Virus record (IMG/VR): IMGVR_UViG_3300033144_005310
Location: 1-41,990 of that record
Length of the DNA: 41,990 bases
Source of the DNA: a virus
Reading direction: 5' to 3' (one strand)
Positions 1 through 41,880 of the stretch are shown here, one piece after another (positions within the stretch are counted from its first letter, which is position 1; each line of letters starts with the position of its first letter). The notes under the pieces are model-generated. The model was not told the origin of the DNA and searched no databases. It saw only the letters and a list, made by a program, of their open reading frames with translations. The translations under genes and the position numbers were made by a program.

Positions 1-114
1 CCATTTATTCCTCCACTAATTATATTTATCTCACAAGTTCTTAACCACCAAACTGCTTCTTCATGAACTGGTGCTGCATATGCGGCTTGTATAAGTAATA
101 AACTTTTCCAAGTA
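1..114. repeat. Terminal direct repeat, copy 1 (circular-assembly overlap or terminal redundancy)
   Basis: Bases 1-114 are identical base for base to 41877-41990. An ORF reads through the junction. Confidence 0.95.
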
Positions 115-5668: not shown

Positions 5669-5875
5669 TTAACTCCATTCCTCCTTCTTGCTTCCATTAA
5701 CCCAAAGTTCTAATCTGCTACTTGTTGAATTATAAAGTAAATAAGTATTTCCACCATAACCATTTAAATAAAATGGTGTTCCACTTGCTACATAAGAATT
5801 AACTGTTGCTACTCCTGTTTCTACTAATATTTCATCTGTTCCAACTGTTATATTTAATGTTTCAGTAGTTGTCAT
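5669..5875 (-). CDS. Small hypothetical protein of the adhesin-like operon
   Basis: 68-aa ORF, SD GAGGGTGG, translationally coupled to its neighbours. Confidence 0.6.
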   Translation of the reverse strand: MTTTETLNITVGTDEILVETGVATVNSYVASGTPFYLNGYGGNTYLLYNSTSSRLELWVNGSKKEEWS

Positions 5876-6216
5876 TATGCCACCCTCACTGTTATATCTT
5901 GTATAACTTCAAATATTCCTGATGTTAATGTTGTTACATTTCCAGATGAATCAACTAACTCTATATCATAATAATATTCTTTTGCATCAACATCAGTATC
6001 TGTTTTAGTTAAAACAATGTTAGTAATTCCACCTATTGCATTTAAATGTGAAGTTACATCTTTTGAAATAATTGCATCAACATCTGCATCTGTTTTAGTT
6101 TCCTTAACTGTAAGAAATATACTTGCACCCACTAAACTAATTGGATTTCCATTCTTGTCTTTAAGTCTTAAAGTCCAAGTCTTATCATCTCTCTTATATA
6201 CTGATAAATTTACCAT
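5875..6216 (-). CDS. Ig-like/beta-sandwich protein; first gene after motif copy A
   Basis: 113-aa ORF. The pattern T..L.D.nG.P..L.GA.i.ltVK....D...I.K resembles phage Ig-like fibre or decoration domains. The ATG has no SD and lies 22 nt after a TTTTATAAA box. Confidence 0.6.
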   Translation of the reverse strand: MVNLSVYKRDDKTWTLRLKDKNGNPISLVGASIFLTVKETKTDADVDAIISKDVTSHLNAIGGITNIVLTKTDTDVDAKEYYYDIELVDSSGNVTTLTSGIFEVIQDITVRVA

Positions 6217-6238
6217 TTTTCTTATTTTGTTTTTTTAA

Positions 6239-6254
6239 TTTATAAAACCAACGA
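6239..6254 (-). promoter_or_regulatory. Conserved 16-nt motif, copy A (coding strand TCGTTGGTTTTATAAA); putative BRE/TATA-type late promoter
   Basis: Identical 16-mer at 9395-9410 and 41555-41570. Exactly 22 nt separate the box from the SD-less ATG at 6216. The motif overlaps the last codons (SLVL-stop) of the upstream gene. Confidence 0.6.
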
Positions 6255-7592
6255 ATTTAAATTTTCTTTTGATTTATATTCTTGAGGTTTTGTTTCTTCT
6301 AAACTAAATTTCTTATGTTCGTTTCCAATTATAGCAACAGGTATTCTTTTTACTTCCATTATGATTGCAGCTATTGCTCTATTTCTTCCCTCGTGGTCTT
6401 TTATCTTTCCTTCACTATAATCTAAAAATCCAGTATCAAGAAAATTTCCTTTTTTAACTCCTTCAATTATATTTAGTATACTTGGAATTTTCATAATTTC
6501 ATGCATTTCTTCTTTACCTTTAACTCCTGCTAATTTTAAAAATTCATTTGGAGACATCCATTCTATATGTCCTCCCTCTCCTTTAAATGCTTGTGTTACT
6601 GCTGGTGTAGTTCCTTTACCAAACCTTACTTTTACATTTTCCCTATGAGAAATTAATTTCTTTTTAAGTGGATTTGATTTTGATTCTCTTAATTTTTTAA
6701 ATTCTGCACTTCTTTTTTCTTTTTGTATACTCGTTGGGTTTTCCCCATATTTATCCCAAATCTTATCAAATTCTTTAATTACTTCTTCATATTCTTTTTT
6801 AATTTCACTTAATTTAGTTTCTTTTTTTTGTTTTTTCTGTTCTTCTTTTCTTTTATTTAGTTCTTTCTTTCTGTTATCGCCAGGATATTCATATTGATAA
6901 CTTCCTCCTGCTCTCCATCTCCTTATATATTTGTGAACTCCTTTTTCTTCTATATTTTTAATTTCTTCTTCCTTAACAAACCTAATTACACTTCTGCAGT
7001 TGGGATGAAACGGAGGAGATTGTGCTCTTATTGTTTTATTATCAACTTTAATTATAAATTCTTGGTCTAAAGGTATTGCTTGGTTTTCTTCTCCATATTT
7101 CTTATCTTCTTTTTTACATATGCTGCTTGTATTTTCATCTTCAACAATATCAATATATTTTCTTAAATTTAAACCACTTTGTTTTGCACCTTCTAATGCA
7201 CCATAATTATTTGCTCTTATCTTTTCTGTTCTTAATACTGTTTTAAGTCTGTTAGTATATTTCTTATCTTTAAAGACATCTTTTATTCTTGTCTTTAATT
7301 GACTTATTTTTTCTTTATTTAATATCCCTCTGCTTAATTCTCCTCTTAATGCTTCTCCCATTGCATCAGTATGAGTTTTTAAGTTATTAAATACATAATC
7401 ATTTAAAAAAGATATTTCCTTTTCATTTGAAACAAAATTCATATTAAATTCAATCTCTGAATTTGTTATTCCTTTTGTATATTCCTCTGAAATAAAATCA
7501 CTTACTTTTAATTTAAAATGTTCAATATTAATAATCTTTATGAATTTATTTATTATCCAATCAATAATATTTTTAACTTCAATACTAACCAT
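6240..7592 (-). CDS. Head morphogenesis protein (SPP1 gp7 / Mu F family) with K/E-rich linker and C-terminal extension
   Basis: 450 aa, immediately downstream of the portal gene. Contains the PPFHPNCRS motif typical of the Mu F family. The C-terminal ~150 aa carries a ParB/Srx-like motif KDHEGRNRAIAA..RIPVAIIG. Confidence 0.85.
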   Translation of the reverse strand: MVSIEVKNIIDWIINKFIKIINIEHFKLKVSDFISEEYTKGITNSEIEFNMNFVSNEKEISFLNDYVFNNLKTHTDAMGEALRGELSRGILNKEKISQLKTRIKDVFKDKKYTNRLKTVLRTEKIRANNYGALEGAKQSGLNLRKYIDIVEDENTSSICKKEDKKYGEENQAIPLDQEFIIKVDNKTIRAQSPPFHPNCRSVIRFVKEEEIKNIEEKGVHKYIRRWRAGGSYQYEYPGDNRKKELNKRKEEQKKQKKETKLSEIKKEYEEVIKEFDKIWDKYGENPTSIQKEKRSAEFKKLRESKSNPLKKKLISHRENVKVRFGKGTTPAVTQAFKGEGGHIEWMSPNEFLKLAGVKGKEEMHEIMKIPSILNIIEGVKKGNFLDTGFLDYSEGKIKDHEGRNRAIAAIIMEVKRIPVAIIGNEHKKFSLEETKPQEYKSKENLNSLVL

Positions 7593-9305
7593 TTATACCT
7601 CTTGGTCTGGTATCTTACTTACAACATCAACTAAAGCATTTCCAATATCATCTATAAAGTTATCCAATTCATCAATTAATTCTTTTGGTTTATCTGTTGC
7701 CTTTTCTTCTGGTTTCTCTTTCTTCTTAAAAGGATTTTCTTTCTTTTTATCTTTGGGTTCTTCATTATCAGAAAAACCAGATTCTTCTTGTGGATTTTGA
7801 TTATTAAATGTTTCTTGTTCTATCTCTCTTTGTTCTTCCTTTTGTTTAACCAATTCTTCAATATCAATTCCTAACTCTTTTGCTACCATTTCAGGTGTCT
7901 TAATTCCCATATTGATTTGTTTAGCAAATAAATCATGTTTTTTATTATCTTCATCTAAATCATATTCATCATAAACAAATTCAATAGGAACATCTCCAGA
8001 ATCTGGTATTTCTTTTCCATTAGCAAAGAACTCGGGCATTATCTGTGTATTAAAGTGATAAGCCAAGACATCAAGTAAAGGTTTAATTGCTTTTCTCTTT
8101 GCTAATTTTGTTTGCTCTTGTGATACTGCTTTATTTGAATTTTCAGTAAATCCCATTTCTTCTGCAGTAACTCCAAAACACATCCAAAGTAATTTAGTAA
8201 ACCATTGTTGTTGGGTTATAACTTCCATTTCTTTTGGATTTAATTGGAATGGTGTAAATTTAACTTCTGTTGTAGTAATAGGATATGTGAAGAACTTCTT
8301 TCTTCTTCTTCCTAAATCATCTGTATATTTAAATTGTTGTTCAAAGTTTTGTCTAAAATTAGTTATTTGTGATTGTTGTGCTCCTAAAAGTTGTATAACC
8401 CCTTCTGGCATATTATTATTAGTATAGAAATCTAAATTAAAGTCTGCTCCATAAATAAGATTAAGTATGATTTCAGTAAGAATCTCAATAGGACTTCTAC
8501 CATAAATACTATCTCCTCTTGGGTTCTGCATAATATAAACAATCTCTCTCTTACCAAAAGGAACTGGCATACTTCCTGCAGTCCATCCATATTGGAAATA
8601 TGCAGCTTGTTGTCTATATAGAATATCATATTGTTTCATTAATTGCTGTTGAGATTCACTTGGACTTCCACCAACACTTATTCCAACTCCAGTAAAACCA
8701 TCTGGTAAAGGTGGGACAAAATCTGCTTTATCTCCCATATAACCATAAATGTCTGGGTTCTTTAAGAAAGTTGCACCATCTCTTGCAAACATTTGCTTAA
8801 ACTCTCCTTTTCTATTAAATACTTTTACTAAAACTCCTGCATCTATTTCAGATATATCAGTAATTAATTGTCTTGTAATGTGTCCTAAACTTTGTTCATT
8901 ACCATTAGGATTATTAAAGAATTTGGTGACTTCTTTTATCTTATTATCATAATTTATTGGTTCTGCTTTTTCTTCTGGTCCTTCTTTATCATCTTCCTCT
9001 TTTTTATCATTATTTGATTCATTAAATTCTTCCTTAACTTTAATTTCCCATCCAACAGAAGTAGCTTCATCACATAAAGTTTTAATAATAGAAAAAACAT
9101 AAGGGTTCTTTGCTAATGTTTTAAATGCCTGTAAGTTTACCTTTCTTGGCATTCCATAAGGTGGTTTATATAAGAAATTAGGAATATATGCTTTAAATAC
9201 ACCATCATCTTTTGCTTCTCTTAATGCTGGTCTATTATTATAAGCACTGTTATCACTAACAGCTTTCACTATAGGTGCTGTATTATATTGAAAAAATTGC
9301 ATCAT
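7593..9305 (-). CDS. Portal protein
   Basis: 570-aa ORF between the terminase and Mu F-like genes. Size and acidic C-terminus are typical of portal proteins. Confidence 0.8.
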   Translation of the reverse strand: MMQFFQYNTAPIVKAVSDNSAYNNRPALREAKDDGVFKAYIPNFLYKPPYGMPRKVNLQAFKTLAKNPYVFSIIKTLCDEATSVGWEIKVKEEFNESNNDKKEEDDKEGPEEKAEPINYDNKIKEVTKFFNNPNGNEQSLGHITRQLITDISEIDAGVLVKVFNRKGEFKQMFARDGATFLKNPDIYGYMGDKADFVPPLPDGFTGVGISVGGSPSESQQQLMKQYDILYRQQAAYFQYGWTAGSMPVPFGKREIVYIMQNPRGDSIYGRSPIEILTEIILNLIYGADFNLDFYTNNNMPEGVIQLLGAQQSQITNFRQNFEQQFKYTDDLGRRRKKFFTYPITTTEVKFTPFQLNPKEMEVITQQQWFTKLLWMCFGVTAEEMGFTENSNKAVSQEQTKLAKRKAIKPLLDVLAYHFNTQIMPEFFANGKEIPDSGDVPIEFVYDEYDLDEDNKKHDLFAKQINMGIKTPEMVAKELGIDIEELVKQKEEQREIEQETFNNQNPQEESGFSDNEEPKDKKKENPFKKKEKPEEKATDKPKELIDELDNFIDDIGNALVDVVSKIPDQEV

Positions 9306-9310
9306 GATGA

Positions 9311-9328
9311 CCCTCCAATTAAGGAGGG
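9311..9328 (-). promoter_or_regulatory. Hairpin that sequesters the portal SD (mRNA CCCUCC-UUAAUU-GGAGGG)
   Basis: Perfect 6-bp GC-rich inverted repeat. Its 3' arm is the portal SD, 5 nt before ATG 9305. A second anti-SD-like CACCTC lies just upstream. Confidence 0.55.
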
Positions 9329-9394
9329 GATTGAGGTGATTTATGTTTCAAAAAAGGTCTAATATCTTCTTCAAAGTCATATATCAAAATACAC

Positions 9395-9410
9395 TTTATA
9401 AAACCAACGA
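9395..9410 (-). promoter_or_regulatory. Conserved 16-nt motif, copy B (putative promoter of the portal transcription unit)
   Basis: Identical to copies A and C. Overlaps SLVL-stop of ORF 9396..9860. Lies about 90 nt upstream of the portal ATG. Confidence 0.55.
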
Positions 9411-9860
9411 TTTTTTTAATGCTTTATGGTCTTTATTTATTAATACAAGTTGTTTTTCTAAGTAGTCTTTATTTTGTAATAGTTGTTTCTTTTTAACAAT
9501 TTGTGCTACCATTTGGTTTAAATTAATAAGTTGTTTCTTAAGTGCCTTACTTCCTTTAGTCATTGACTTTGTTACTTCTTTAATTATTTTATCTGGAATT
9601 AAGTTTTCATCAATATGTTTAAGCTTAACTAATTCTGCTTCTATATTATTCATATTACCATCAGCACTTGCTTTTTGGTTATCAATAAATGCTTGTAGAA
9701 TATGTATTTTGTCTTTATCTATTATTTGTTCTGTTATTTGACTAAAGAATCCTATATCTACATTTTTACCTTTGTGTGGTAATACTAATTTATCTTTACT
9801 ATTAACTATTATTCTTAATTTGCCATTATCTAATTGTTCAAACTTCTTTGTTTCATTCAT
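9396..9860 (-). CDS. Hypothetical coiled-coil protein
   Basis: 154-aa ORF with SD AGGAGGA and K/L/Q-rich heptad-like sequence. Confidence 0.6.
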   Translation of the reverse strand: MNETKKFEQLDNGKLRIIVNSKDKLVLPHKGKNVDIGFFSQITEQIIDKDKIHILQAFIDNQKASADGNMNNIEAELVKLKHIDENLIPDKIIKEVTKSMTKGSKALKKQLINLNQMVAQIVKKKQLLQNKDYLEKQLVLINKDHKALKKSLVL

Positions 9861-10269: not shown

Positions 10270-10508
10270 TTTTTCTGTTTAAATGTTTTCCTTTCTGATG
10301 CACTCATATCATCCCATTTAAGTATTTTACCAACCATTTTTACTCTAAATGTTTTCATACATCTTTGACATTGAAATATTAAAATATAATCTTGTAATAT
10401 CTTTACTCTATATTTACCTATTGTCTTTGGAACTTTACTTCCATGACTTCCTTTCCAATAAGTGCAATAAGGACAAGTAAAATATTTAGTTACCAATATT
10501 ACCTCCAA
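10251..10508 (-). CDS. Small Zn-ribbon protein
   Basis: Contains CPYC ... CQRC. The likely true start is TTG at 10496, behind SD GGAGGT. Confidence 0.55.
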   Translation of the reverse strand: MEVILVTKYFTCPYCTYWKGSHGSKVPKTIGKYRVKILQDYILIFQCQRCMKTFRVKMVGKILKWDDMSASERKTFKQKKWNKKK

Positions 10509-12024
10509 AGTCCAATATTACTTTATTAATTGTCATTAGTTCTAAAGCATAACCTATTGCTATTGGAATATCTGGATGCACTCCTGCTTCTACTAATTTG
10601 CCTTCTACTAACGCATAAGAAGTGCATTCACTTAAGATTCTATCAGCTATGGATTTATCTTTTTCTGTCTTATATGGGATTATAAACCTCTTATTTTCAA
10701 ATGCTGTGCCTAACCTCATGATAAGATTAATCTTTCCAACTGTATGTCTTTTCTCTGTCCAATCATAATCTTTATAAGCTGTCTTTCTTTTAGCTGGGTC
10801 TGATGCTCCAGTCCAGAATAATGTAATAGGTAGATTCCATTGTTGTATATCTTTAGAAATAGATTTAATTGAGTTTTCTTCTAATCCTATTTGGTCATAG
10901 TTTTCTTTAGGGTATAACTCATTTTGTATTATCTTCATTTGTTCAAATACACTTAAACCATGTTCTATTTTACAACATAATAAATAATAAAAGTCATCTT
11001 TTACTCCTAAACCACTAAATACAGAATTATTTGCAGTTATTCTATCACTAAAAGCAAAGTCCACTCCTAATGTTTTCATTTCAAACTGCATTTTAGTAAT
11101 ATCTTCTGCACTAATATCTTCTCTAAAACAACCTTCAATCCATTCTCTTTTAATTAAACTGGCACTATTATCTACAGGATTATTAAGATATTCTTGTTGA
11201 AATGGAATAGAACCAATATCATATTTAATCTTCTTTAGTTTTTCTTTAGTAAATCTATCTTTCCAGAGGATTTTATTAAAATTTTCATCACAAGCTTTGA
11301 ATATCTTACCTTTATGTTTTCTAATCTTCTTCATAAGTAAAGAATCTAATTGTAAAATAGTTCCAATAAACTTCCATCTCCCATTAATATCTAAAGAAGG
11401 AATAATAACTTTGTTTAATTTGTTTGCATCTTTTACTCTTAATTCTGGGTTAAGAACTCTAACATCTTCTTCAATATCATCTAAAATAATAAGTGTTGGT
11501 CGCATATTTCTAAACTTAAATCCTCTTAAGTTCTTTTCAAAAGATACTCCTTCTACTCTGCACCCACCTACATCTAGACAATCTTCCCTATCTCTTGCTC
11601 TATCTGCATTGTTTACTTTCTCAAGTAGGTCGCCATAGATAAATCTTAATAACTCATTATTCTTAAACTCATATTGAACTGGTGTAATAAACTGTACTGT
11701 TTTAGAATGATTTTGAGAAATATATACAATATACTTCTCTAATTTATTTACTATACAAAATATAAGATAAATAATTCCAGTGATAGATGACTTTGCATGA
11801 CCTCTTGGTGCTGCCAATGCTCCACTTTTTTCATCAAATAAAAAATCATAAATCTCACTATGAAATTTGGGTATTTTATTAGTAATAGTTTCTGGAAATA
11901 GAACCTCTGCAAATAAATTGATATTTTCTTTAAAACTAAAGATATATCGAAGTAATTCTTTTAATGTATTATCATCACCACTCTCTTTTATTATTTTGGC
12001 AATCTCTTTTTTTGTTATTTTCAT
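10486..12024 (-). CDS. terL: Terminase large subunit
   Basis: 512 aa. P-loop-like AAPRGHAKSS, Walker B LIILDDIEED, and a C-terminal nuclease-like region. Follows a small HTH gene. Confidence 0.9.
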   Translation of the reverse strand: MKITKKEIAKIIKESGDDNTLKELLRYIFSFKENINLFAEVLFPETITNKIPKFHSEIYDFLFDEKSGALAAPRGHAKSSITGIIYLIFCIVNKLEKYIVYISQNHSKTVQFITPVQYEFKNNELLRFIYGDLLEKVNNADRARDREDCLDVGGCRVEGVSFEKNLRGFKFRNMRPTLIILDDIEEDVRVLNPELRVKDANKLNKVIIPSLDINGRWKFIGTILQLDSLLMKKIRKHKGKIFKACDENFNKILWKDRFTKEKLKKIKYDIGSIPFQQEYLNNPVDNSASLIKREWIEGCFREDISAEDITKMQFEMKTLGVDFAFSDRITANNSVFSGLGVKDDFYYLLCCKIEHGLSVFEQMKIIQNELYPKENYDQIGLEENSIKSISKDIQQWNLPITLFWTGASDPAKRKTAYKDYDWTEKRHTVGKINLIMRLGTAFENKRFIIPYKTEKDKSIADRILSECTSYALVEGKLVEAGVHPDIPIAIGYALELMTINKVILDFGGNIGN

Positions 12025-12475: not shown

Positions 12476-12492
12476 TGCTTAAAACTTTTAAT
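12476..12492 (-). promoter_or_regulatory. 17-nt motif TGCTTAAAACTTTTAAT, shared with 23905-23921 (operator-like)
   Basis: Exact 17-mer found twice in the genome. Both copies are intergenic and sit at the heads of operons. Confidence 0.6.
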
Positions 12493-12634: not shown

Positions 12635-13790
12635 TTTTTGTTGCTTTATTTCCTGTGTAATCTTCCCATCTGTCTATTATCACTTGGCAATATATTGGGT
12701 CTAATTCCATCATAAAACATTTTCTTTTAAGTTTTTCAGCAACAATTAAGGTTGTTCCTGAACCACCAAATAAATCTAAAACTTTATCTCCTTGATTAAC
12801 AGATTTTATTAACTCTGAAAATAATTTTATTGGTTTAGGACAAGTATGGAGATTTCTTAATTCTACTCCTTCAACTTTCTGTCTTTCAACAATTATATCT
12901 AAATAATCATCTACTAATTTATTCTTGAACCTTCCCCATATAAATATAGGTTCTGTTCTTCTCCAATTACTATTCTTTCCACCACTTTGTTTATTTCTTG
13001 CTATCCAATAGAATTTATCATAAGGGTCTTTATTCTCCCAAAATTTATTATATGTCCATCCAGTAAATAAAATAATTAGTTTTGATTTTGTTTTTGCTAT
13101 ATTAAACCATGAATCTGAAAATCTTAAATATTCTTCCCCTTTTTCATCTTTATATTGATTATATTCATATCCAATACCATAAGGTGGGTCTGTTAATATT
13201 AAATCAATATTATTATTTTCAATAAGTGTGTTATAATCTTTTTCAATAGTTGCATCTCCACAAAGAAGTCTATGTTCTCCTAATTGATATATATCTCCTA
13301 ACTTTACTTTACAATTAGCTTCTGCTTCTTTTCTTGCTTGTTCTGGGTCAAATTCTTCATCTTTTGCTTCTTTTTGATTAATTAAGTCTAATAATTCTTT
13401 TATATTCTTATTCTGGCTTGGAAGTAAGTTTATCAATTCAACAATCGCATTATTATCATCTAAAAACTTAAACTCTTTCATATCAAAATCTTCTCTATGT
13501 GTTCCTTTTAGTTTGTTTAGCACTTGTCTCAATATTCGCCTATCTACTTCATCAACATCTAAAGCAATAACTGGGACTTCTTTTATATCTAAATCTCTTG
13601 CTGCCTTCCATCTGTGATAACCATCTGCTATTTTATATTCTTTATTTGTAATAATAGGAATAATAAATCCATATTTGCTTATAACCTCTTTTAATGCATC
13701 AAAGTCATTATCATTCATCTCATTAGGATTAGTTTCATCCACTATTAGCTTTGTTCTATCAATTAGTTCTGCTTTTGGTATGTTTATCAT
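12624..13790 (-). CDS. ParB-like nuclease domain fused to a DNA N6-adenine/N4-cytosine methyltransferase
   Basis: N-terminal IADGYHRWKAA..VPVIAL (ParB motif). DPPY motif LILTDPPYGIGY precedes FGGSGTT, which is the beta-class motif order. Confidence 0.9.
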   Translation of the reverse strand: MINIPKAELIDRTKLIVDETNPNEMNDNDFDALKEVISKYGFIIPIITNKEYKIADGYHRWKAARDLDIKEVPVIALDVDEVDRRILRQVLNKLKGTHREDFDMKEFKFLDDNNAIVELINLLPSQNKNIKELLDLINQKEAKDEEFDPEQARKEAEANCKVKLGDIYQLGEHRLLCGDATIEKDYNTLIENNNIDLILTDPPYGIGYEYNQYKDEKGEEYLRFSDSWFNIAKTKSKLIILFTGWTYNKFWENKDPYDKFYWIARNKQSGGKNSNWRRTEPIFIWGRFKNKLVDDYLDIIVERQKVEGVELRNLHTCPKPIKLFSELIKSVNQGDKVLDLFGGSGTTLIVAEKLKRKCFMMELDPIYCQVIIDRWEDYTGNKATKIDL

Positions 13791-14041
13791 TTTATTTTAT
13801 TTATATATGTTCTATTTCCTCCTTTACCTGTTATTCTTTCAATATCTAATATTCCTCTATCCCATAATTCTTTTATTTTTCTATAAAATGTTTTATAAGA
13901 AATACTATTTGGATGTTTTAATATAAAATTATTATACATTACACCCATACTCATTGGAAGTTTGTTTTCTTTTATTATTTCAATTATAGCTCCATCTTGT
14001 TGTTGTGTTGCTAATCCAGATAATCCTTTCCAATTAATCAT
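13787..14041 (-). CDS. Winged-helix DNA-binding protein
   Basis: 84 aa. SYKTFYRKIKELWDRGILDIERITGKGGNRTYI resembles a wHTH recognition helix plus wing. Confidence 0.55.
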   Translation of the reverse strand: MINWKGLSGLATQQQDGAIIEIIKENKLPMSMGVMYNNFILKHPNSISYKTFYRKIKELWDRGILDIERITGKGGNRTYINKIK

Positions 14042-14606: not shown

Positions 14607-14760
14607 CTTTCCCTCCGCTTTTGTTTCTCAATAAGTTCATTATTGAAGCTGTCTTATTCCCACAATACTTACATTTAAACATCTTCCAATTAGAGTTATA
14701 GTTCATTATTGAAGCTGTCTTATTCCCACAATACTTACATTTAAACATCTTTCCCTCCAT
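14548..14760 (-). CDS. Small CxxC protein with an internally duplicated N-terminus
   Basis: MFKCKYCGNKTASIMN occurs twice. The likely start is ATG 14748, behind GGAGGG. The track start at 14760 lies inside the upstream motif. Confidence 0.6.
   Translation of the reverse strand: MEGKMFKCKYCGNKTASIMNYNSNWKMFKCKYCGNKTASIMNLLRNKSGGKDGTETKRKMEKTRIKKNTI
14634..14751 (-). repeat. Tandem duplication: 51-52 bp perfect direct repeat with a 66-bp period
   Basis: 14635-14685 is identical to 14701-14751. Each copy carries its own ATG and a CxxC motif. Confidence 0.9.
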
Positions 14761-14783
14761 TTATGCGTGTTGATTATACGAAC
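14749..14783 (-). promoter_or_regulatory. Early upstream element, copy 1 (GTTCGTATAA-N-ACGCATAAATGGAGGGAAAGATG)
   Basis: One of four related copies (14899-14931, 16560-16594, 16720-16758). Each directly precedes a micro-gene. Confidence 0.6.
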
Positions 14784-14898
14784 TCCCCTGAATTACTTTC
14801 CGATATTCTTCTAATGTTCCTTTAAATACAATTTTCCCATCTTTCTTCACAAAACTAACATACCTTGGAAACCCTGTATTTATTTCTTCCAATTTCAT
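14761..14898 (-). CDS. Micro-ORF (45 aa)
   Basis: MKLEEINTGFPRYVSFVKKDGKIVFKG.... Its stop is the TAA inside element copy 1. Confidence 0.5.
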   Translation of the reverse strand: MKLEEINTGFPRYVSFVKKDGKIVFKGTLEEYRKVIQGSSYNQHA

Positions 14899-16410: not shown

Positions 16411-16559
16411 ATCTTCTCCAGTTTATGTTTTAATACTTTCCTTACTCTACAAGACATAGTTGTATCATCAATAACCTTAAAGACTTCTTTCATTCTATTA
16501 TTGAGAGCCATCTTAATTGTATCAGCACAAACATCACAATTAGTTTCGTTCATTTCCAT
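16407..16559 (-). CDS. Micro-ORF (50 aa)
   Basis: Directly follows element copy 2. MEMNETNCDVCADTIKMALNN... Confidence 0.5.
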   Translation of the reverse strand: MEMNETNCDVCADTIKMALNNRMKEVFKVIDDTTMSCRVRKVLKHKLEKI

Positions 16560-16594
16560 CTTTCCCTCCATTTATGCGTGTTGGTTATACAAAC
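16560..16594 (-). promoter_or_regulatory. Early upstream element, copy 2
   Basis: Coding strand GTTTGTATAACCAACACGCATAAATGGAGGGAAAGATG. Confidence 0.6.
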
Positions 16595-16719
16595 AATCTT
16601 CTTATTCCTTGCTCTCTAATATTTAATTCTGTCTCTTGTTCATATATTTCTATTTCCTCAATAGTATGATTATTCCCATACGAAAGCCAAACATTCTTCT
16701 CTTCATATATTAGTTCCAT
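16585..16719 (-). CDS. Micro-ORF (44 aa)
   Basis: Follows element copy 3. Its stop codon lies inside element copy 2. Confidence 0.5.
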   Translation of the reverse strand: MELIYEEKNVWLSYGNNHTIEEIEIYEQETELNIREQGIRRLFV

Positions 16720-16758
16720 CTTTCCTCCCATTTATGCGTATACTATAATTATACGAAC
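16720..16758 (-). promoter_or_regulatory. Early upstream element, copy 3 (with hairpin CGTATA-N7-TATACG)
   Basis: Coding strand GTTCGTATAATTATAGTATACGCATAAATGGGAGGAAAGATG. Confidence 0.6.
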
Positions 16759-16761
16759 TTA

Positions 16762-16986
16762 TTAATCATGTCCTTCTCTTGCTTGTTGTTTTCCATCTTC
16801 ACAATTAGGACATAAATTATTCTCCTTAGGGTAATCTGCTGGAAGCTTACATTCACAACATTCACAAGTTCTATATGAAGTCATGCTTCCATTCTTGTAT
16901 CCATGCAAATCCATAACTCTCATTATGTCATCTACTAATGCTTGTGGCATTTGTTCTTTTCCTTTTACTTTAATTTCAATTTTCAT
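16762..16986 (-). CDS. Small Cys-rich (Zn-binding) protein
   Basis: 74 aa with CECCEC ... CPNC. Confidence 0.6.
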   Translation of the reverse strand: MKIEIKVKGKEQMPQALVDDIMRVMDLHGYKNGSMTSYRTCECCECKLPADYPKENNLCPNCEDGKQQAREGHD

Positions 16987-19936: not shown

Positions 19937-20050
19937 TTATTTATTTTTATCCAGTAACCTCTTTATAATATCTTCAAATGTTTCTCCTTTATTTCCTATA
20001 TCTTCTAATTCTTTATGAACTTCATCTGATATTCTTATTGTTTTTACCAT
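19937..20050 (-). CDS. RHH/CopG-like small protein resembling archaeal VapB-type antitoxins
   Basis: 37 aa: MVKTIRISDEVHKELEDIGNKGETFEDIIKRLL. No SD. AT-rich TATA-like repeats lie upstream. Confidence 0.5.
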   Translation of the reverse strand: MVKTIRISDEVHKELEDIGNKGETFEDIIKRLLDKNK

Positions 20051-20644: not shown

Positions 20645-20770
20645 TTAAACCTTTGTATTTTTTTCTTCTACTTCAAACATTGCCTTACAAGTTTTACAAA
20701 CATAAATCTTTCTTTTTTCTGATATTCTTATTGCTATCCCACTACACCAAACACAATTTATTGTTTCCAT
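20645..20770 (-). CDS. Zn-ribbon micro-ORF (41 aa)
   Basis: SD GGAGGTGA. CVWC ... CKTC. Confidence 0.5.
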   Translation of the reverse strand: METINCVWCSGIAIRISEKRKIYVCKTCKAMFEVEEKNTKV

Positions 20771-21039
20771 TATTTCACCTCCTTTAAATTATCTGCTTGG
20801 TCTTTCATATACTGAAACTCTTGAAATTTTAAATAATAGTATTTACTCATTTCTCTAAAATATTCAGTATCTTTTAGAATAATCTGTTTGCAGAGCATAT
20901 TCACTATATTACTTGCAGTAGTTCCTTCTATTCTTGCTTTATCTTCTATCTTTTTTAGAACTATTTTATCAAAGTTTATAGTTTTAGCTGCTTTTCCAAA
21001 ACTTGGTTTTTGCTTATCTATTTTTCTCAATTTAATCAC
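20770..21039 (-). CDS. Putative RHH-type DNA-binding protein
   Basis: KTINFDKIVLKKIEDKARIEGTTASNIVNMLCKQII fits a strand-helix-helix pattern. The start is GTG 21039 or, more likely, TTG 21030 behind GAGGTGA. Confidence 0.55.
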   Translation of the reverse strand: MIKLRKIDKQKPSFGKAAKTINFDKIVLKKIEDKARIEGTTASNIVNMLCKQIILKDTEYFREMSKYYYLKFQEFQYMKDQADNLKEVK

Positions 21040-21295: not shown

Positions 21296-21433
21296 TTAAA
21301 TCTTTTTATTTCCAAAATATTTTTCAATAGCCATACTTACTATTGCAGATTTGCTTCTATATTCATTTTTAGATTTTAAATTTAATAATTTATTTAAATC
21401 TTTATCTATTGATATACATATTACTTTTTTCAT
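21296..21433 (-). CDS. Ribbon-helix-helix (CopG/Arc-like) protein, 45 aa
   Basis: SD GGGAGG. MKKVICISIDKDLNKLLNLKSKNEYRSKSAIVSMAIEKYF. Confidence 0.6.
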   Translation of the reverse strand: MKKVICISIDKDLNKLLNLKSKNEYRSKSAIVSMAIEKYFGNKKI

Positions 21434-23904: not shown

Positions 23905-23921
23905 TGCTTAAAACTTTTAAT
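23905..23921 (-). promoter_or_regulatory. 17-nt motif TGCTTAAAACTTTTAAT (second copy)
   Basis: Identical to 12476-12492. Confidence 0.6.
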
Positions 23922-32551: not shown

Positions 32552-33586
32552 TTAAACAACAATAGTCCACCATCTAATTGGGACTTTTGCTGCTCCATCT
32601 GTTAATCCACTCAATGCATATCCTGTTATTGTTATTTCCATTGCACCATCTTCTAAAGAAATTGGTGATGAATAACTTTCAAAATAAACATTTTCAAAAT
32701 CAAAGTTTACTACTCTGTCATCATTTGCTGCACCTTCTACCAAATCTAAACTCATCGTAACTGCTGTGTTTTGTGCTGAATCTAATGGTGTAGTTCCTGC
32801 TGGTAATCCACTAAATACAATACCTCTTGCTTCTAATCCACTTAAAGTTGAAGCTATATCATTATAATTTAGTTTCATGGTAAGAGTAAAGTCATACCTT
32901 CTAACTCCTGCAACTGGTTGCTGTATTAATCTGCTTCCCATAGTTCTATATAAGAACATATTATTAGCACAAGTAATCTCTGCACTCATTAATGCTCCAA
33001 CTGTGTCAGAACCAACTGTTACACTACCATCAATAAAAGTAAAAGGTCTATTTGTTGGTGCTGTATAAGTTAATAGAGTTGTTGAACTTGTTGCTGTTCT
33101 TGCAATCCAATCTGCACTTACTTTTACTGTTTCTCCTTGTGTTGCTGAAAGTGTAAAGTTATTTATTACAACTCCATCATAAGTCATAACATCATCATTT
33201 GCTCCACCTTCACTTCCTACTTCTAAAGTAAGAGTATTTACTTGTCCTGCTGCATAACCTATTTCATCTACTTCTGAAATCTCATAGGGGTCTGCTGCAG
33301 TTCCTGCTCCCGCTTTTGCTCCAATAATACAATATTGTAAAAATGAGGGGTCAGTTAATTCCCATTCCATACTTCCTGTACAATCTAAATTTCCATTAAC
33401 TACATGGGTAGCATTTCTGCCTTCTCCTATCCCATGCACTCTTATCATATTATTTGTAAGACTTGCTGAAAATGAACTTACTTTATCTACATAATCTGTT
33501 CCTGTTGGTGTTCCTGCTGTTCCAAATGCTGTATCTTCTGCATATACAACATAAGTATCTATTCCTTTATAATATGATATACTCAT
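32552..33586 (-). CDS. Major tail (tube) protein
   Basis: 344 aa immediately upstream of the chaperone and tape measure genes. No sheath-like gene is present. Confidence 0.65.
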   Translation of the reverse strand: MSISYYKGIDTYVVYAEDTAFGTAGTPTGTDYVDKVSSFSASLTNNMIRVHGIGEGRNATHVVNGNLDCTGSMEWELTDPSFLQYCIIGAKAGAGTAADPYEISEVDEIGYAAGQVNTLTLEVGSEGGANDDVMTYDGVVINNFTLSATQGETVKVSADWIARTATSSTTLLTYTAPTNRPFTFIDGSVTVGSDTVGALMSAEITCANNMFLYRTMGSRLIQQPVAGVRRYDFTLTMKLNYNDIASTLSGLEARGIVFSGLPAGTTPLDSAQNTAVTMSLDLVEGAANDDRVVNFDFENVYFESYSSPISLEDGAMEITITGYALSGLTDGAAKVPIRWWTIVV

Positions 33587-34272
33587 AGTAATTCACCTAC
33601 TTCTAATCCATTAATATTATTCATTTTTATTTCCTCCGTTTTTATTTTCATTTGTTTTTGTTCTTGTACAATTTTACGTTCAACTTTTGTATGACAATTT
33701 CTACATAAAGTTATTAAATTTTTTAATGAGTTATCACCAGAATATAAAAAAGGGATAATGTGGTGTACATCCATAGCTTTTCCATATTCATTCATAGTAA
33801 TACCACACATTTTACATTGAAAATTATCTCTTTTATAAATAAGTAATCTTATTGCTTCCCAATCATCACCATATCTTGCTGGGGAAAGCAATTTACTTCT
33901 GCCATCAATATAATTCCAAGGTCTCCTACCTTTTAATTTTTCTATTGTATTAAGTGATAGTTTTCTTCCATTAAGTTTTTTACTTATTTTTTCTTTTGTT
34001 TTTTCTGACCTTTTTTTTCCATATAAAGGATGTTTAAAACTACTAAATTCTGGTCTTTTTTTTCCTTCCCAATAACCTTTTCTTCCAATCATTTTTTTCT
34101 TTGTTTCTTCAGATAGTTTTCTTCCTTTTAAAGTTAAAGAAATTTTCCTTTTTATTTCATCTGATAGTTTTTTACCTTTCTTTCCTGAAGGTTTTCCTTT
34201 ATGTGCTTTACTAAGTGCTTTTTTATGGGAATCTGATAGTTTTTTACCTTTATTCCAAGCACTTCTTACCAT
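33583..34272 (-). CDS. HNH homing endonuclease with NUMOD3-like repeats
   Basis: Repeated GKKLSDxxKxKIS motifs. CKMCG...VHHIIPF...NLITLCRNCHTKVE. Confidence 0.85.
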   Translation of the reverse strand: MVRSAWNKGKKLSDSHKKALSKAHKGKPSGKKGKKLSDEIKRKISLTLKGRKLSEETKKKMIGRKGYWEGKKRPEFSSFKHPLYGKKRSEKTKEKISKKLNGRKLSLNTIEKLKGRRPWNYIDGRSKLLSPARYGDDWEAIRLLIYKRDNFQCKMCGITMNEYGKAMDVHHIIPFLYSGDNSLKNLITLCRNCHTKVERKIVQEQKQMKIKTEEIKMNNINGLEVGELL

Positions 34273-35298: not shown

Positions 35299-35316
35299 TC
35301 TGACCCTCTTGGATTT

Positions 35317-38198: not shown

Positions 38199-38516
38199 TT
38201 ATGCAAATACTCCTAAATCTGCTCTACCTGTAAGTTCTACAAATCTACAAGCATTTGTATTTGCACTTTGAACTGTTACTGTAACTACACCATCTGCTAC
38301 TGAACAAGTTGCAATGTCTGTTACTATCACACTTCCACTTGTAGTATGAACCCAACTTCTTATGGTTAATAATCCAGTTTTGGATATTCCATAATCAGCA
38401 AGAGTAACTGTAAAAGTATCGTTTTCATCAGTTGTATTTGGAGTAAGGAAACATACTGTTTTTAACCCTGCATTAGGGACTTGTTCCCAATACTTCAATA
38501 TACTTGTTGCTGTCAT
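38199..38516 (-). CDS. 105-aa paralogue B (putative capsid decoration or accessory protein)
   Basis: About 65% identical by eye to ORF 38518..38835. Both end in TGRADLGVF. Confidence 0.7.
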   Translation of the reverse strand: MTATSILKYWEQVPNAGLKTVCFLTPNTTDENDTFTVTLADYGISKTGLLTIRSWVHTTSGSVIVTDIATCSVADGVVTVTVQSANTNACRFVELTGRADLGVFA

Positions 38517-38517
38517 T

Positions 38518-38835
38518 TTATACGAATACTCCTAAATCTGCTCTACCTGTTATTTGAATTACTCTCATATCATCATCAGTTCCTGCTGCGATTGTTACAG
38601 TAAGAACACCATCTGATACTGCACAGGTGTTTAATTCAGTTGTAATGATACTGCCATCTGCTGTATGCACCCAACTTTCTACTGCCAATAAACCTGTTTT
38701 TGAAATACCATAATCTGCTAATGTTATTTCCAAAGTATCAGTTGCATCTGCAGTATTTGGTGTAATGAATAATACTTGTTTTAATCCAGAGTTCGGAACT
38801 TGTTCCCAACTTTTTAATATACTTGTTGCCGTCAT
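38518..38835 (-). CDS. 105-aa paralogue A
   Basis: Tandem duplicate of 38199..38516. Confidence 0.7.
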   Translation of the reverse strand: MTATSILKSWEQVPNSGLKQVLFITPNTADATDTLEITLADYGISKTGLLAVESWVHTADGSIITTELNTCAVSDGVLTVTIAAGTDDDMRVIQITGRADLGVFV

Positions 38836-38858: not shown

Positions 38859-39128
38859 TTAACTTCTATAAATTACGAATCCAGTTGCTGTTCCTGTAGA
38901 TGCATTTGTTAATGTCGCTACATTTGCAGCCCAAGTTGGTTCTTCCAATATTCCTGTGCTATCATCAGTAATTATTGCTAAATATACTTGCTTTACTCCT
39001 ATTAATGTCCATGTATCGTTTTGTGCTGCTTTTGCACCAGCCGTAATCGTTCCAATTTTCATACCAGAATTATTACCACCAGCATTTAAGCCCATTTCAA
39101 CCACACTTACATTAGTATTTGTTGCCAT
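38859..39128 (-). CDS. 89-aa paralogue D
   Basis: About 40% identical by eye to 39131..39400. Shares G.K.G....G.KAAQNDT. Confidence 0.7.
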   Translation of the reverse strand: MATNTNVSVVEMGLNAGGNNSGMKIGTITAGAKAAQNDTWTLIGVKQVYLAIITDDSTGILEEPTWAANVATLTNASTGTATGFVIYRS

Positions 39129-39130
39129 TT

Positions 39131-39400
39131 TTATGCCTGTCTATAAACTAAAAATATAGTTCCAGCTGTTGCTGTAGCACTTGTTAATGTCATTACATTA
39201 GTTGAAATAGTTATTGGGTCTGAAACCCCATCTGCATCTGTTAAACAACAAGCATAAAGAACTGCTTTTGCATTGTTTACAGTAATAGTATCATTTTGTG
39301 CTGCTTTTGTTCCACTAACTATAATTCCTAATTTAAGTCCATCATTAGTTGCTCCACCAAGAGTTGCTAATTCAGTTGCACTTATGTCTGTATTTGTCAT
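39131..39400 (-). CDS. 89-aa paralogue C (first gene after the capsid gene)
   Basis: SD GGAGGA. Tandem duplicate pair with 38859..39128. Confidence 0.7.
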   Translation of the reverse strand: MTNTDISATELATLGGATNDGLKLGIIVSGTKAAQNDTITVNNAKAVLYACCLTDADGVSDPITISTNVMTLTSATATAGTIFLVYRQA

Positions 39401-39414
39401 GTTGTCCTCCTATT

Positions 39415-39447
39415 GAAAAGAAAAAAACATAAGGGAAAACCCTTATG
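39415..39447 (-). terminator. Hairpin plus T-tract terminator/attenuator after the capsid gene
   Basis: mRNA CAUAAGGG-UUUU-CCCUUAUG followed by U7. The stem overlaps the capsid gene stop codon. Confidence 0.7.
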
Positions 39448-40564
39448 CGATTTCTCCAATAAAGCTGTTAAATGCTGTATTTTTTATGATTAATGTTTCA
39501 TAAATTTTCAACATAAACTTTTCACTGTCATTAGTTTTTGCAAGGTCTTCGTATGTCAAATCTTGTAATACTCTCATTTCTATAACACTCATATCAAGGA
39601 AGTAGATTGCTTTTTCAGCTGTGGTATTACTCATATACATACTTGGAATTACTGGTATTTGTCCGACCATTGTGTTTAAAACAATAGTTGAAAATCCCCA
39701 GAATACTTGCTGTGTAGGTTGCATATAACCAATTTTAGCTGTCAATAATCCAAGTAAATCAGTAAATACTGCACTTGCACAAACTGCTAAATTAGGTCTT
39801 CCACCATCATCAAATGCATATTGTATTGCTGTTTCAATATCATTTAAAGTCATTGCTGTGGTGTTTTTATCTACTTTATTTGTGGTTGATTGTAATGCAA
39901 TAATACCATCAAATTGTGTAGGGTCTGTTGCTGTTGCACCATTAACAATTAAGCTTTCTTCTAATTCTCTCATTTCTCTTGTTTTAACTAAAACTTCAAG
40001 TTGTTTTGCATTCATTGCTGATTGGTCATTGAAAGGTCCTGTTGCTCCACCTTGTGATGCAATTCCTCCTAAAATCCAACTTGGCATTGATGCGATTGCT
40101 GGACCAGTTACTCTACCAACTGAATACAAGAACTTAATAGCTGTGCTTTTTCTATCATAAGTTGTATTTGTTTCTGAGGTTGCTCCATCTTCAACTGCTG
40201 TGTATGCTCCACCTTTTGCAGTTAATTGGTTGTAATCTGCATACATACCCATGTTAGTTACTCTTGGAACTAACTCAACTAATGGTGTGTATTTTCTTGT
40301 AATATCAACAATTCTTGGGTCTACATAAATTGGGACCATAGCATAACCTGCTGTTCCTGCTCCACCTGCTGTGGTTGTTAATGCTTTCATTCCTATCTTC
40401 GCTGTATCGCCAATTTGTTCTCTTAAATCAACTTCATACTTCATTTCTCCAACACTTTTTAAATCTACTTTTTGATATACTGTTTTATTAGGTAAGTTAC
40501 CAAATGATTGTGCATAAGCACCTCCTGTGGTAAATCCTAAATCTATTGCTTGTGTTTCTGCCAT
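39443..40564 (-). CDS. Major capsid protein (HK97 fold)
   Basis: 373 aa directly after the prohead protease gene. Strong SD. Size and composition are typical. Confidence 0.8.
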   Translation of the reverse strand: MAETQAIDLGFTTGGAYAQSFGNLPNKTVYQKVDLKSVGEMKYEVDLREQIGDTAKIGMKALTTTAGGAGTAGYAMVPIYVDPRIVDITRKYTPLVELVPRVTNMGMYADYNQLTAKGGAYTAVEDGATSETNTTYDRKSTAIKFLYSVGRVTGPAIASMPSWILGGIASQGGATGPFNDQSAMNAKQLEVLVKTREMRELEESLIVNGATATDPTQFDGIIALQSTTNKVDKNTTAMTLNDIETAIQYAFDDGGRPNLAVCASAVFTDLLGLLTAKIGYMQPTQQVFWGFSTIVLNTMVGQIPVIPSMYMSNTTAEKAIYFLDMSVIEMRVLQDLTYEDLAKTNDSEKFMLKIYETLIIKNTAFNSFIGEIA

Positions 40565-40581: not shown

Positions 40582-41532
40582 TTATCTTATCATACCTAAT
40601 ATTGAAATAGGTTTTTCTGATTTTACTTCTGGTTGTTCTGGGGTTACTGATTTAAAAACATCAGTTTCTTTTAATGATTTTAATTCTTTTTCTTGAACTT
40701 CCATTTTATCTGCCATTGCTTTTAACTCTGCTGTTAATTTTTCAATAGCTTTTTCATCTACTTTTGCTTCAGCTGGTGCTTCTGCAACTTCTTCTTTTAC
40801 TTCTTCTTTAGTTTCTTCTTTTGATTCTTCTTTCACTTCTTCAGTAGCTTCTGCTGGTTTTTCTTCAACAGGTGCTTCTGATGGTTTTTCAATTTGTTCA
40901 TCTTTTGTTTCCATTGTTTCCTCCTTTGCTAATTTATTATTAATACACTCTTGTCTCATTTCAGTATCTCCAAAATCTTCTATTGCTTTAAGCATAACTG
41001 CTTTCATTCCAAAATCTGTCATTACTGCACTTTGATTTACTGGATTTCCTGTTAAGGCAACATTTAATAATGTTAAATCCTCTATAAGTCTAACTTGTGT
41101 ATCTCCTATTGTTTTCATTACTGTTTTAATTGGTTTAAATGCTATAGAAAATGCTTTAATAAATCCATCTTTAATACTCTCCCATAAATTACTAAATTTA
41201 GGACTTGCTTTATTTAATTGTGCTTTTACCCATAAACCTTTGTCGTCTATCTTTGCATCTACTATCTTTCCTGCTGGTAATATTGTTGAATCATCTCTCC
41301 AAGTTTCATGTTCGTAGTCTAACATTATTGTGCTTTCTGTTATTTGTTTCAACATGGATTTAAGTGCTGTTGGTGTTACCAAATCATTATATAAATCAAT
41401 TTCTGGAACTGAAATATATCCTGTAACATAATGTTTTTTACCTTCTAAAGTATCAACTGCCTTAAATGAAATTGTATCAGTTAGGAAAGAATAAGATTTC
41501 TCTTTAATTATTTCTTGTTTAGATTGTTCCAT
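40582..41532 (-). CDS. Prohead protease (HK97/S78-like) fused to an acidic scaffold-like C-terminus
   Basis: VTGYISVPEIDLYNDLV...MLDYEHE...DDKGLWV...AFSIAF pattern. C-terminal E/K/A-rich coiled coil. The SD-less ATG lies 22 nt after motif copy C. Confidence 0.75.
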   Translation of the reverse strand: MEQSKQEIIKEKSYSFLTDTISFKAVDTLEGKKHYVTGYISVPEIDLYNDLVTPTALKSMLKQITESTIMLDYEHETWRDDSTILPAGKIVDAKIDDKGLWVKAQLNKASPKFSNLWESIKDGFIKAFSIAFKPIKTVMKTIGDTQVRLIEDLTLLNVALTGNPVNQSAVMTDFGMKAVMLKAIEDFGDTEMRQECINNKLAKEETMETKDEQIEKPSEAPVEEKPAEATEEVKEESKEETKEEVKEEVAEAPAEAKVDEKAIEKLTAELKAMADKMEVQEKELKSLKETDVFKSVTPEQPEVKSEKPISILGMIR

Positions 41533-41554
41533 TTTACTTTTTTAGTTGTTTTTG

Positions 41555-41570
41555 TTTATAAAACCAACGA
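41555..41570 (-). promoter_or_regulatory. Conserved 16-nt motif, copy C (putative promoter of the protease-capsid unit)
   Basis: Identical to copies A and B. Starts 1 nt after stop 41572. There are 22 nt from the TTTTATAAA box to ATG 41532. Confidence 0.6.
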
Positions 41571-41571
41571 T

Positions 41572-41880
41572 TTATTCTATAATAGAACAACCTTGATTAT
41601 CACAACTATATTTTACTCCAATATTCTTTTCTGTTATTATTTGTTCTTGCTCAAAGTCATTTTCAATTTCCATCCAACCACTTCTACACAATTTATTTCC
41701 AATTTCTGCATTCCAACATTTTCCACTATCTAATCCATAATATGCTGTTAATTTATCACATTGCATAACTATATTTCTATCTTCACAAAAATAAGTATCA
41801 TCACTTAAAATATTTACTCCACCTAAAAATAGGATAGAAGTTAAAAATACACTTAATATGCTTGTTTTAATTTTATCCAT
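41572..41880 (-). CDS. Small exported Cys-rich protein
   Basis: 102 aa. Signal peptide ILSVFLTSILFLGGVNI. YFCEDRN and CRSGWMEIE motifs are shared with the 831-aa LTD protein. Confidence 0.7.
   Translation of the reverse strand: MDKIKTSILSVFLTSILFLGGVNILSDDTYFCEDRNIVMQCDKLTAYYGLDSGKCWNAEIGNKLCRSGWMEIENDFEQEQIITEKNIGVKYSCDNQGCSIIE

Follow-up and report, generated by a model that had tools for sequence, protein, structure and literature searches.

A 16-nucleotide repeat before the structural operons of an uncultivated tailed virus resembles an archaeal core promoter

The IMG/VR virus record IMGVR_UViG_3300033144_005310 carries one and the same 16-nucleotide sequence, TCGTTGGTTTTATAAA, at three places beside its structural genes, and the question raised by the copy at 41555-41570 is what such a repeat does there. 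The stretch analysed, here called the window, comprises positions 1 to 41,990 of the record. It is a complete, circularly assembled viral genome of about 41.9 kb with a 114-bp terminal overlap and about 29% G+C, in which nearly every gene is found on the - strand. The 16-mer is probably an archaeal-type core promoter of structural, presumably 'late', operons in a tailed virus whose host is probably an archaeon. Signals of this kind are known, and the repeat adds a clean new example to them without implying a new mechanism.

The three copies are exact and are all found on the - strand, which is the gene strand. The original prediction described three copies and no others, and a search of the whole genome agrees with this because it gave no further match with three or fewer mismatches. 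The base composition leads to an expectation of 4.6e-5 occurrences per strand, and one of 200 dinucleotide shuffles contained any 16-mer present three times. The copies are designated A, B and C and have the following surroundings.

6239-6254, - strand: motif copy A, with the stop codon of the Mu F gene (6240-6242) inside the TATA-like box
6217-6238, - strand: spacer of copy A, 22 nucleotides (nt), without a Shine-Dalgarno (SD) sequence
9395-9410, - strand: motif copy B, with the stop codon of a 154-amino acid (aa) gene (9396-9398) inside the motif
9306-9394, - strand: region upstream of the portal gene, with a T6 run and a hairpin at 9311-9328 (CCCTCC/GGAGGG) that pairs the SD
41555-41570, - strand: motif copy C, an exact match to TCGTTGGTTTTATAAA, with an orthologous core before the protease gene in most closer relatives
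41555-41563, - strand: TATA-like box of copy C, TTTTATAAA
[quoted passage not shown]
41533-41554, - strand: spacer of copy C, 22 nt, A+T-rich and without an SD in the sequence, belonging to the 21-24-nt spacing class

The motif of copies A and C is followed, after exactly 22 nt, by an ATG (6216 and 41532) that has no SD-like sequence, just as had been proposed. The similarity between these two copies extends beyond the motif, and the 45-nt stretches 6213-6257 and 41529-41573 are 84% identical with the spacer included. In copy B the portal ATG (9305) is found 89 nt downstream of the motif. The portal leader of this copy has a predicted fold with a minimum free energy of -24 kcal/mol (z = -2.4). 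Relatives have no such leader with an SD-pairing hairpin at the place of 9311-9328 and a T6 run, and the portal gene in this genome may have gained translational or attenuation control through it.

The motif also meets the end of the preceding gene. In copies A and B the upstream open reading frame (ORF) enters the motif and terminates at the TAA within TATAAA, and in copy C the upstream 102-aa gene has its stop codon 1 nt before the motif. Both the Mu F ORF (6240-7592) and the ORF 9396-9860 have the ending TCG TTG GTT TTA TAA, that is SLVL*, which had been taken as a coding constraint on two unrelated proteins. Both do end in this way, but the tail is a by-product rather than a notable constraint because the upstream gene in relatives stops before the motif.

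Relatives were gathered by means of the capsid protein, resulting in 1341 homologues, many of them on contigs of 36-41 kb, and 389 IMG/VR contigs. Many were sampled from Ace Lake, Antarctica. Deposited phages are distant, with a large terminase less than 30% identical to any of them and only two weak capsid matches among 50,697 deposited phage genomes, and the portal protein has no exact match on record. The core TGGTTTTA(T/A)AAA is kept in about 100 related viral contigs before the portal, prohead-protease and tail genes, and in relatives with this core the portal is 50-63% and the capsid 61-79% identical. A search for the motif at the same gene boundaries had been suggested as a check, and it found the core TGGTTTTAWAAA at the portal, protease and tail sites while the flanking intergenic sequence has diverged. 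At the portal site, TGGTTTTA(T/A)A(A/T)A is present in 16 of the 17 contigs retrieved by way of the portal, directly after the stop codon of the homologue of the 154-aa gene and with the portal downstream of it. Most closer relatives have the core before the prohead protease, and many relatives also have it before a 215-aa tail-terminator-like gene. Its orientation is strongly biased across the roughly 100 loci, with 69 copies on the gene strand versus 6 antisense (binomial p = 6e-15). The sites that had been described as module boundaries are better read as promoters, one for each structural operon.

Counted from the end of the core to the next real ATG, the distances form three classes of 21-24, 29-38 and 61-70 nt. 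The shortest class contains 24 of 67 oriented copies (14 at 21 nt, five at 22, two at 23 and three at 24; p = 7e-19 compared with a uniform distribution). It spans unrelated genes, namely the protease gene, the 113-aa gene of this genome and genes of 81, 131, 132, 135 and 399 aa in the related loci L038, L039, L048 and L014. The 29-38-nt class consists mostly of portal genes, and the portal ATG in relatives is usually without an SD. The 61-70-nt class belongs to the tail gene, which has a leader with a conserved CAAGAG(A/G)G.

The genes of the shortest class are depleted of SD sequences, with an SD-like sequence in 3 of 23 compared with 692 of 1068 other genes on the same contigs (Fisher p = 6e-7). 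When these regions are aligned at the ATG, position -1 is T or C in 20 of 24 and position +1 is A in all 24, while positions -12 to -2 have 88% A+T against a background of about 65%. TTTA(T/A)AAA, an A/T-rich box of 8 bp of the TATA type, does not vary among the three copies or within the core that relatives share. Gauged against the start codon, the box-to-start distance is 21-24 nt to an SD-less ATG in the 24 copies, which would be the spacing known from archaea if transcription begins at the ATG.

These properties can be compared with mapped archaeal promoters. In Methanocaldococcus jannaschii, 94% of promoters have a TATA box whose 3' edge is 23 +/- 2 nt away from the start site, T is preferred at position -1, A or G occupies +1, and A+T makes up 86% of the proximal element (PMC2699501). 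In Sulfolobales and SSV1 the TATA box TTTAWA(TR) has its centre about 27 bp upstream, RNWAAW is the sequence of the BRE, and a pyrimidine-purine pair forms the initiator (bioRxiv 10.64898/2026.06.17.732947). The repeat is similar in having an 8-9-bp A/T box, 21-24 nt to the presumed start compared with the mapped 23 +/- 2, a pyrimidine at -1 and a purine at +1, a proximal spacer of about 88% A+T, and an asymmetric conserved element immediately before a near-palindromic box. It differs in being much more specific than a general promoter, with 2-6 copies per genome. It also differs in its upstream element, which is (T/A)TGG plus a genome-specific extension instead of an A-rich or purine-rich BRE (RNWAAW, with a conserved A at -34).

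Leaderless genes in archaea have a TA-like signal about 30 bp before the start codon, whereas those in bacteria have TANNNT about 12 bp upstream (PMC3160421). The shortest spacing class resembles the archaeal arrangement because the box ends 21-24 nt before the ATG and the SD is specifically absent at those genes. A difference is that about two thirds of the genes here have an SD-like sequence, and leaderless initiation would therefore be limited to the first genes of certain operons. The original prediction that nearly all internal genes have strong GGAGG-type SDs was overstated since a strong SD-like sequence precedes 46 of the 86 putative genes and a weak one precedes 11. Its proposal of an archaeal-type promoter giving leaderless mRNAs is supported by the conservation, orientation, spacing and SD depletion, and by the lack of fit to bacterial signals described below.

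If the repeat is an archaeal-type promoter, the quasi-palindromic TTTTA(T/A)AAA would be the TATA box bound by the TATA-binding protein. The asymmetric upstream segment, consisting of the invariant TGG and 4-7 genome-specific bases, would occupy the BRE position and set the direction of transcription. The TGG and its extension probably confer promoter-class specificity, via transcription factor B (TFB) or a dedicated factor. RNA polymerase would begin about 22-24 nt downstream of the box, which from the geometry would put the start at the A of the ATG in copy A (6216) and copy C (41532), or about 2 nt away from it at most. Leaderless mRNAs are accordingly predicted for the 113-aa gene and for the prohead-protease gene. 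In copy B transcription would start near 9372, and the portal gene would have its SD in a structured leader of about 67 nt.

Copy C, the protease promoter, was most likely duplicated to yield copy A, and this would have given a newly acquired 9-kb accessory module its own promoter. Duplication is the best explanation because of the 45-nt similarity between the two copies and because the Mu F-protease stretch in relatives is without its own copy of the motif. In the relatives examined this stretch holds different and shorter cargo, and no motif copy was seen there.

The host is likely archaeal, judging by gene content and database labels. An ORF at 19937-20050 (37 codons, below the length of the ORF list) has a match to PF02697/DUF217 above the threshold (E = 4e-8) and also to DUF7557. 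PF02697/DUF217 has been described as archaea-specific (PMC2701414). This ORF, whose match is to an antitoxin family, is located downstream of GAAAGGTTTATATA, a sequence resembling the canonical BRE/TATA of methanogens. No match to a peptidoglycan hydrolase or holin family was found in this genome or in 145 accessory protein clusters of relatives. The genome-bin or protein labels of relatives are archaeal in four of six cases (Methanosarcinales, Heimdallarchaeaceae, Woesearchaeota and 'archaeon'), but bin labels are mixed and Heimdallarchaeaceae and Woesearchaeota were taken from protein names, which makes these labels suggestive only. Several intergenic regions finish in T runs without hairpins, and the near absence of capsid matches in deposited phage genomes also points to an archaeal host.

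Other searches are neutral with regard to the host. The 145 accessory clusters yielded no domain-diagnostic family, and their matches included a family-B DNA polymerase, a primase-polymerase, glycosyltransferases and Laminin_G_3. A search for homologues of the ParB-methylase returned no organism names. Inference of the host from close cultured relatives was uninformative, given the distant terminase and capsid.

Several observations weigh against an archaeal promoter and an archaeal host. The bases at the BRE position are (C/T)G(T/A)TGG, with a G at the place of the expected conserved A, and fit neither RNWAAW nor an A-rich consensus. The BRE/TATA geometry of the original prediction holds for the TATA box and for its spacing to the ATG, while the BRE part is not canonical. 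The spacing signal is partly inherited orthology among protease promoters and not a set of independent events. A control for the TATA-to-ATG distance with SIRV2 and three low-GC Firmicutes phages had only 2-10 boxes per genome, too few to discriminate, and Clostridium phage phi3626 had two boxes at 23 nt. The family-wide TATA-to-ATG peak, which may include variants of the same motif, was not relied on. A cassette in the early region with TATAAT, about 18 nt, GGAGGG and ATG is also compatible with a bacterial -10 plus SD, although the 24 nt from the end of TATAAT to the ATG fit archaeal spacing too. The archaeal bins of relatives fall in different phyla, and two relatives are in bacterial bins, Akkermansia and WOR-3. 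The Akkermansia-binned contig has 33% G+C and is probably mis-binned because this is far below the value for the genus. Finally, a zeta-toxin kinase domain that is fused to the portal in some relatives is best known from bacterial systems.

Among other explanations, a bacteriophage promoter survives best but is improbable. A bacterial RNA polymerase would then recognise the repeat through sigma-70 or through an alternative sigma factor directed by the phage, with TATAAA/TAAAAA in the place of a -10-like box or (T)TGG in that of a -35/-24 element. The box does resemble A/T-rich -10 elements and the T4 late box TATAAATA. The final T of the -10 element, which is invariant there, is however missing, and the box is TATAAA(C/G/T) here but TAAAAA in most relatives and therefore not TATAAATA. 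Many relatives have the flank TTGATGG, in which TTGA agrees with four of the six positions of TTGACA, and a 17-bp spacer would place a -10 element at -14 to -9 with a start that is also near the ATG. TTG is nevertheless not conserved before GG because the base preceding TGG can be A, T, C or G, and no conserved -10-like column is seen between motif and ATG when the 21-24-nt class is aligned at the ATG. The position 12 nt after the invariant GG falls in TA(A/T)AAA and has no GC element, so the repeat is not a sigma-54 promoter. A start 7 nt past the box would leave a leader of 14-15 nt without an SD, though 65% of the genes in these genomes have one.

The bacterial bins of two relatives and the TATAAT plus SD of the early cassette also speak for a bacterial polymerase. 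The archaea-specific DUF217 gene of this genome speaks against it, as do the sigma-70-like sites, which are rarer than in shuffles (90 versus 129 +/- 12, and 89 versus 102 +/- 9.5). No sigma factor or RNA polymerase gene was detected among the ORFs of the genome.

It is still less probable that the repeats are mainly recombination substrates or scars without a primary role in transcription, either as linkers for module exchange or as direct repeats that remained when the 9-kb accessory module was inserted between Mu F and the protease. Copies A and C do form direct repeats around this module with the 45-nt similarity described above, the Mu F-protease stretch is hypervariable among relatives, and copies within a genome share flanks on both sides of the core, as copying or gene conversion predicts. 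However, the core is kept family-wide at orthologous sites in genomes without the insertion, and its strict orientation and strict spacing to SD-less start codons are constraints that recombination scars do not have. No integrase or recombinase family was found in any ORF of this genome, which does not fit att-like sites. Recombination at identical promoter cassettes is plausible as a side effect and not as an alternative function.

An action at the RNA level, as a processing site, as a translation enhancer or standby site for SD-less genes, or as a terminator of the upstream gene, is very improbable. It would explain why the motif always abuts the stop codon of the upstream gene, contains a T4 run and has a fixed ATG distance in one class. 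A translation element is unlikely because the ATG distance differs by gene class; three separate classes that follow the downstream gene fit a promoter with different leaders. No inverted repeat is found in or beside the motif and it has only four T's, so that both the hairpin and the long T run of a terminator are missing. The scan showed no enrichment of intrinsic terminators and put none at the copies, Rfam gave no match, and no complementarity of the motif to the 3' end of 16S rRNA was found by reading. A T7-type promoter, a diversity-generating retroelement and a packaging site were rejected because the genome has no polymerase gene, because it has no reverse transcriptase, and because the copies are multiple and oriented, respectively.

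The repeat as an archaeal-type promoter has a finer structure in the bases next to the box. Within one genome, the copies share 4-7 bases before TGG and often also bases after the box. These extensions are genome-specific, with TCGT here, GTGACAC in L078, TAACGC in L102 and TAGA in L038 and L048. The mean identity over the seven upstream bases is 3.83 within genomes versus 2.92 between genomes. The shared extensions could reflect a co-evolving specificity factor or, equally, copying or gene conversion of promoter cassettes.

A more far-reaching proposal is that TGG and its extension are recognised by a dedicated specificity factor, either a protein of the virus or an alternative TFB of the host, which co-evolves with each virus and switches the archaeal polymerase to the structural genes. 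Candidate early DNA-binding proteins in this genome include those of a winged-helix gene (13787-14041), two ribbon-helix-helix genes (21296-21433 and 20770-21030) and several zinc-ribbon proteins. A corollary of the proposal is that the promoter geometry would place the whole family, with its 1341 capsid homologues and 389 IMG/VR contigs, in archaeal hosts, possibly of DPANN or Asgard lineages. This proposal is tentative and rather unlikely. If it is true, the factor would be an archaeal counterpart of phage late sigma factors.

Short class-specific elements are known from archaea. The UV-inducible, tfb3-linked promoters of Sulfolobus have a regulon-specific hexanucleotide upstream of BRE/TATA, at about -46 to -39, with a function shown by reporter assays (PMC5817253). 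The similarity is that promoters of one co-regulated class are set apart by a short, non-palindromic element that lies upstream of the core promoter. The difference is that the hexanucleotide is found apart from the TATA box, whereas the specific bases here abut the box and have a putative role.

In SSV1 the temporal promoter classes are not separable by sequence signature (bioRxiv 10.64898/2026.06.17.732947). The genes of SSV1 are read by the host machinery from BRE/TATA promoters, as those of the present virus would be, but here a distinct and highly conserved signature marks the structural operons. Kessler and colleagues reportedly found in 2004 that SIRV1 and SIRV2 promoters have a virus-specific GTC after the TATA box, which would be another short virus-specific addition to a TATA promoter. 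A further difference from SSV1 and SIRV is that here a tailed virus with the HK97 fold infects hosts that are uncultivated.

Phages with class-specific promoters, such as T4 with its late promoter TATAAATA and T7, have a short and near-identical sequence repeated before the late or structural units of one virus. The analogy with the present repeat is functional, since a near-identical short sequence precedes structural transcription units in both. The polymerase machinery and the geometry are different, and the box-to-start distance here does not fit these promoters.

If confirmed, the motif would be a sequence-only handle on the transcription programme of a large and globally distributed family of tailed viruses of about 40 kb. 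None of its members is cultivated, and the deposited phage genomes include no close relative. An SD-less ATG with a TATA box about 26 nt before it is difficult to square with a bacterial host, and the motif therefore offers a testable host assignment at the level of domain, which would cover hundreds of contigs whose present bins are archaeal and bacterial genomes unrelated to one another. At the BRE position, the non-canonical bases that differ from genome to genome might be an entry point to the separation of late from early transcription in archaeal viruses, which is poorly understood beyond a few Sulfolobus and haloarchaeal models. The finding in itself is a promoter, that is, expected biology.

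The genes around the three copies are listed below in the order in which they are read along the - strand.

10486-12024, - strand: large terminase gene
9396-9860, - strand: 154-aa gene
9395-9410, - strand: copy B
7593-9305, - strand: portal gene (PF04860 at 2e-21; phrog_2662)
6240-7592, - strand: Mu F-like minor head protein gene (PF04233 at 1e-9; phrog_115)
6239-6254, - strand: copy A
1-6216 and on across the junction, - strand: accessory module, possibly receptor-binding or adhesin-like, with genes of 113 aa (5875-6216), 68 aa, 575 aa and 831 aa with a lamin-tail domain (1445-3940), and a 492-aa Cys-rich ORF
41572-41880, - strand: 102-aa gene, the last of the accessory module
41555-41570, - strand: copy C
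40582-41532, - strand: prohead protease/scaffold gene, the first of the protease-capsid-tail operon (phrog_80 at 8e-22; weak Peptidase_S78_2 match)
39443-40564, - strand: major capsid protein gene, SU10-type (PF17236 at 1e-22)
downstream of the capsid gene, - strand: tail genes

The identities that had been given to the portal, Mu F, protease and capsid genes agree with these matches (PF04860, PF04233, phrog_80 and PF17236). The description of the accessory module as adhesin-like has as its basis a sub-threshold match to the lamin-tail domain and a weak BppU_N match only. The 492-aa Cys-rich ORF of this module (1-1475, continuing at 41873-41876 over the circular junction) has many N-x-S/T sequons and repeated D-W-D-T motifs, and no Pfam match was found for it. 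The ORF tool misses it because it wraps the ends of the contig.

Downstream of the capsid gene, at 38199-38835 and 38859-39400, there are two tandem paralogous pairs of small genes (two of 105 aa and two of 89 aa) with repeats of 246 nt and 60 nt that are 72-73% identical. The tail module also contains a homing-type endonuclease gene with HNH and NUMOD3 domains (33583-34272), which overlaps the start of the tail tube gene. Relatives have HNH_3 or GIY-YIG genes at other positions. No tRNA genes were found in this genome or in 50 loci.

The early region has repeated elements of its own. A 54-nt cassette is present in three to four copies, at 14743-14796, 16554-16607 and 16714-16767 with a degenerate copy near 14898, and has the structure AGTTCGTATAAT..ACGCATAAATGGAGGGAAAG-ATG on the - strand. 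It may be an early promoter plus 5' leader. The sequence AAAAGTTTTAAGCA occurs in exactly two copies, at 12476-12489 and 23905-23918 (- strand), compared with 0.18 expected. Both are located in long intergenic gaps, one before a small-terminase-like 137-aa gene and one before an early operon, and they may represent a second class of promoter or operator. An exact 52-nt tandem duplication (14634-14685 and 14700-14751) is found inside a small zinc-ribbon gene, where the peptide MFKCKYCGNKTASIMN is duplicated. The sequence AAAAAGATTAAAA occurs once in this genome (21130-21142), in an early intergenic gap of 265 nt.

Other conserved elements are found among the relatives. In a more distant clade of the family the protease junction carries another conserved box, AAATACTTTTAAAAAGATTAAAA, and in most cases an SD comes after it. 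This box is found upstream of the protease gene in L057, L061, L063-L065, L070, L072, L076, L077, L090, L097 and L098. Either CCAAGAGG or ACTCAAGAGAG occurs immediately before the 215-aa tail-terminator-like gene (35299-35316; about 40 loci) throughout the family, whether the promoter motif is present or not. G+C-rich inverted repeats are located directly before the large terminase gene in L085 (about 1800-1885), L022 (about 2215-2300), L001 (about 1300-1388) and L019 (about 7610-7700), and may be a packaging site or a structured leader.

The long portals of some relatives were considered as carriers of an intein. This was rejected since the extra part is a zeta-toxin-like kinase, and the portals in L008 (1033-3735) and L017 (833-3229) are fused to a C-terminal Zeta_toxin/AAA_33 kinase domain (E = 2e-26). 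We know of no earlier description of a portal-toxin fusion. The same fusion is probably present in L015 and L016.

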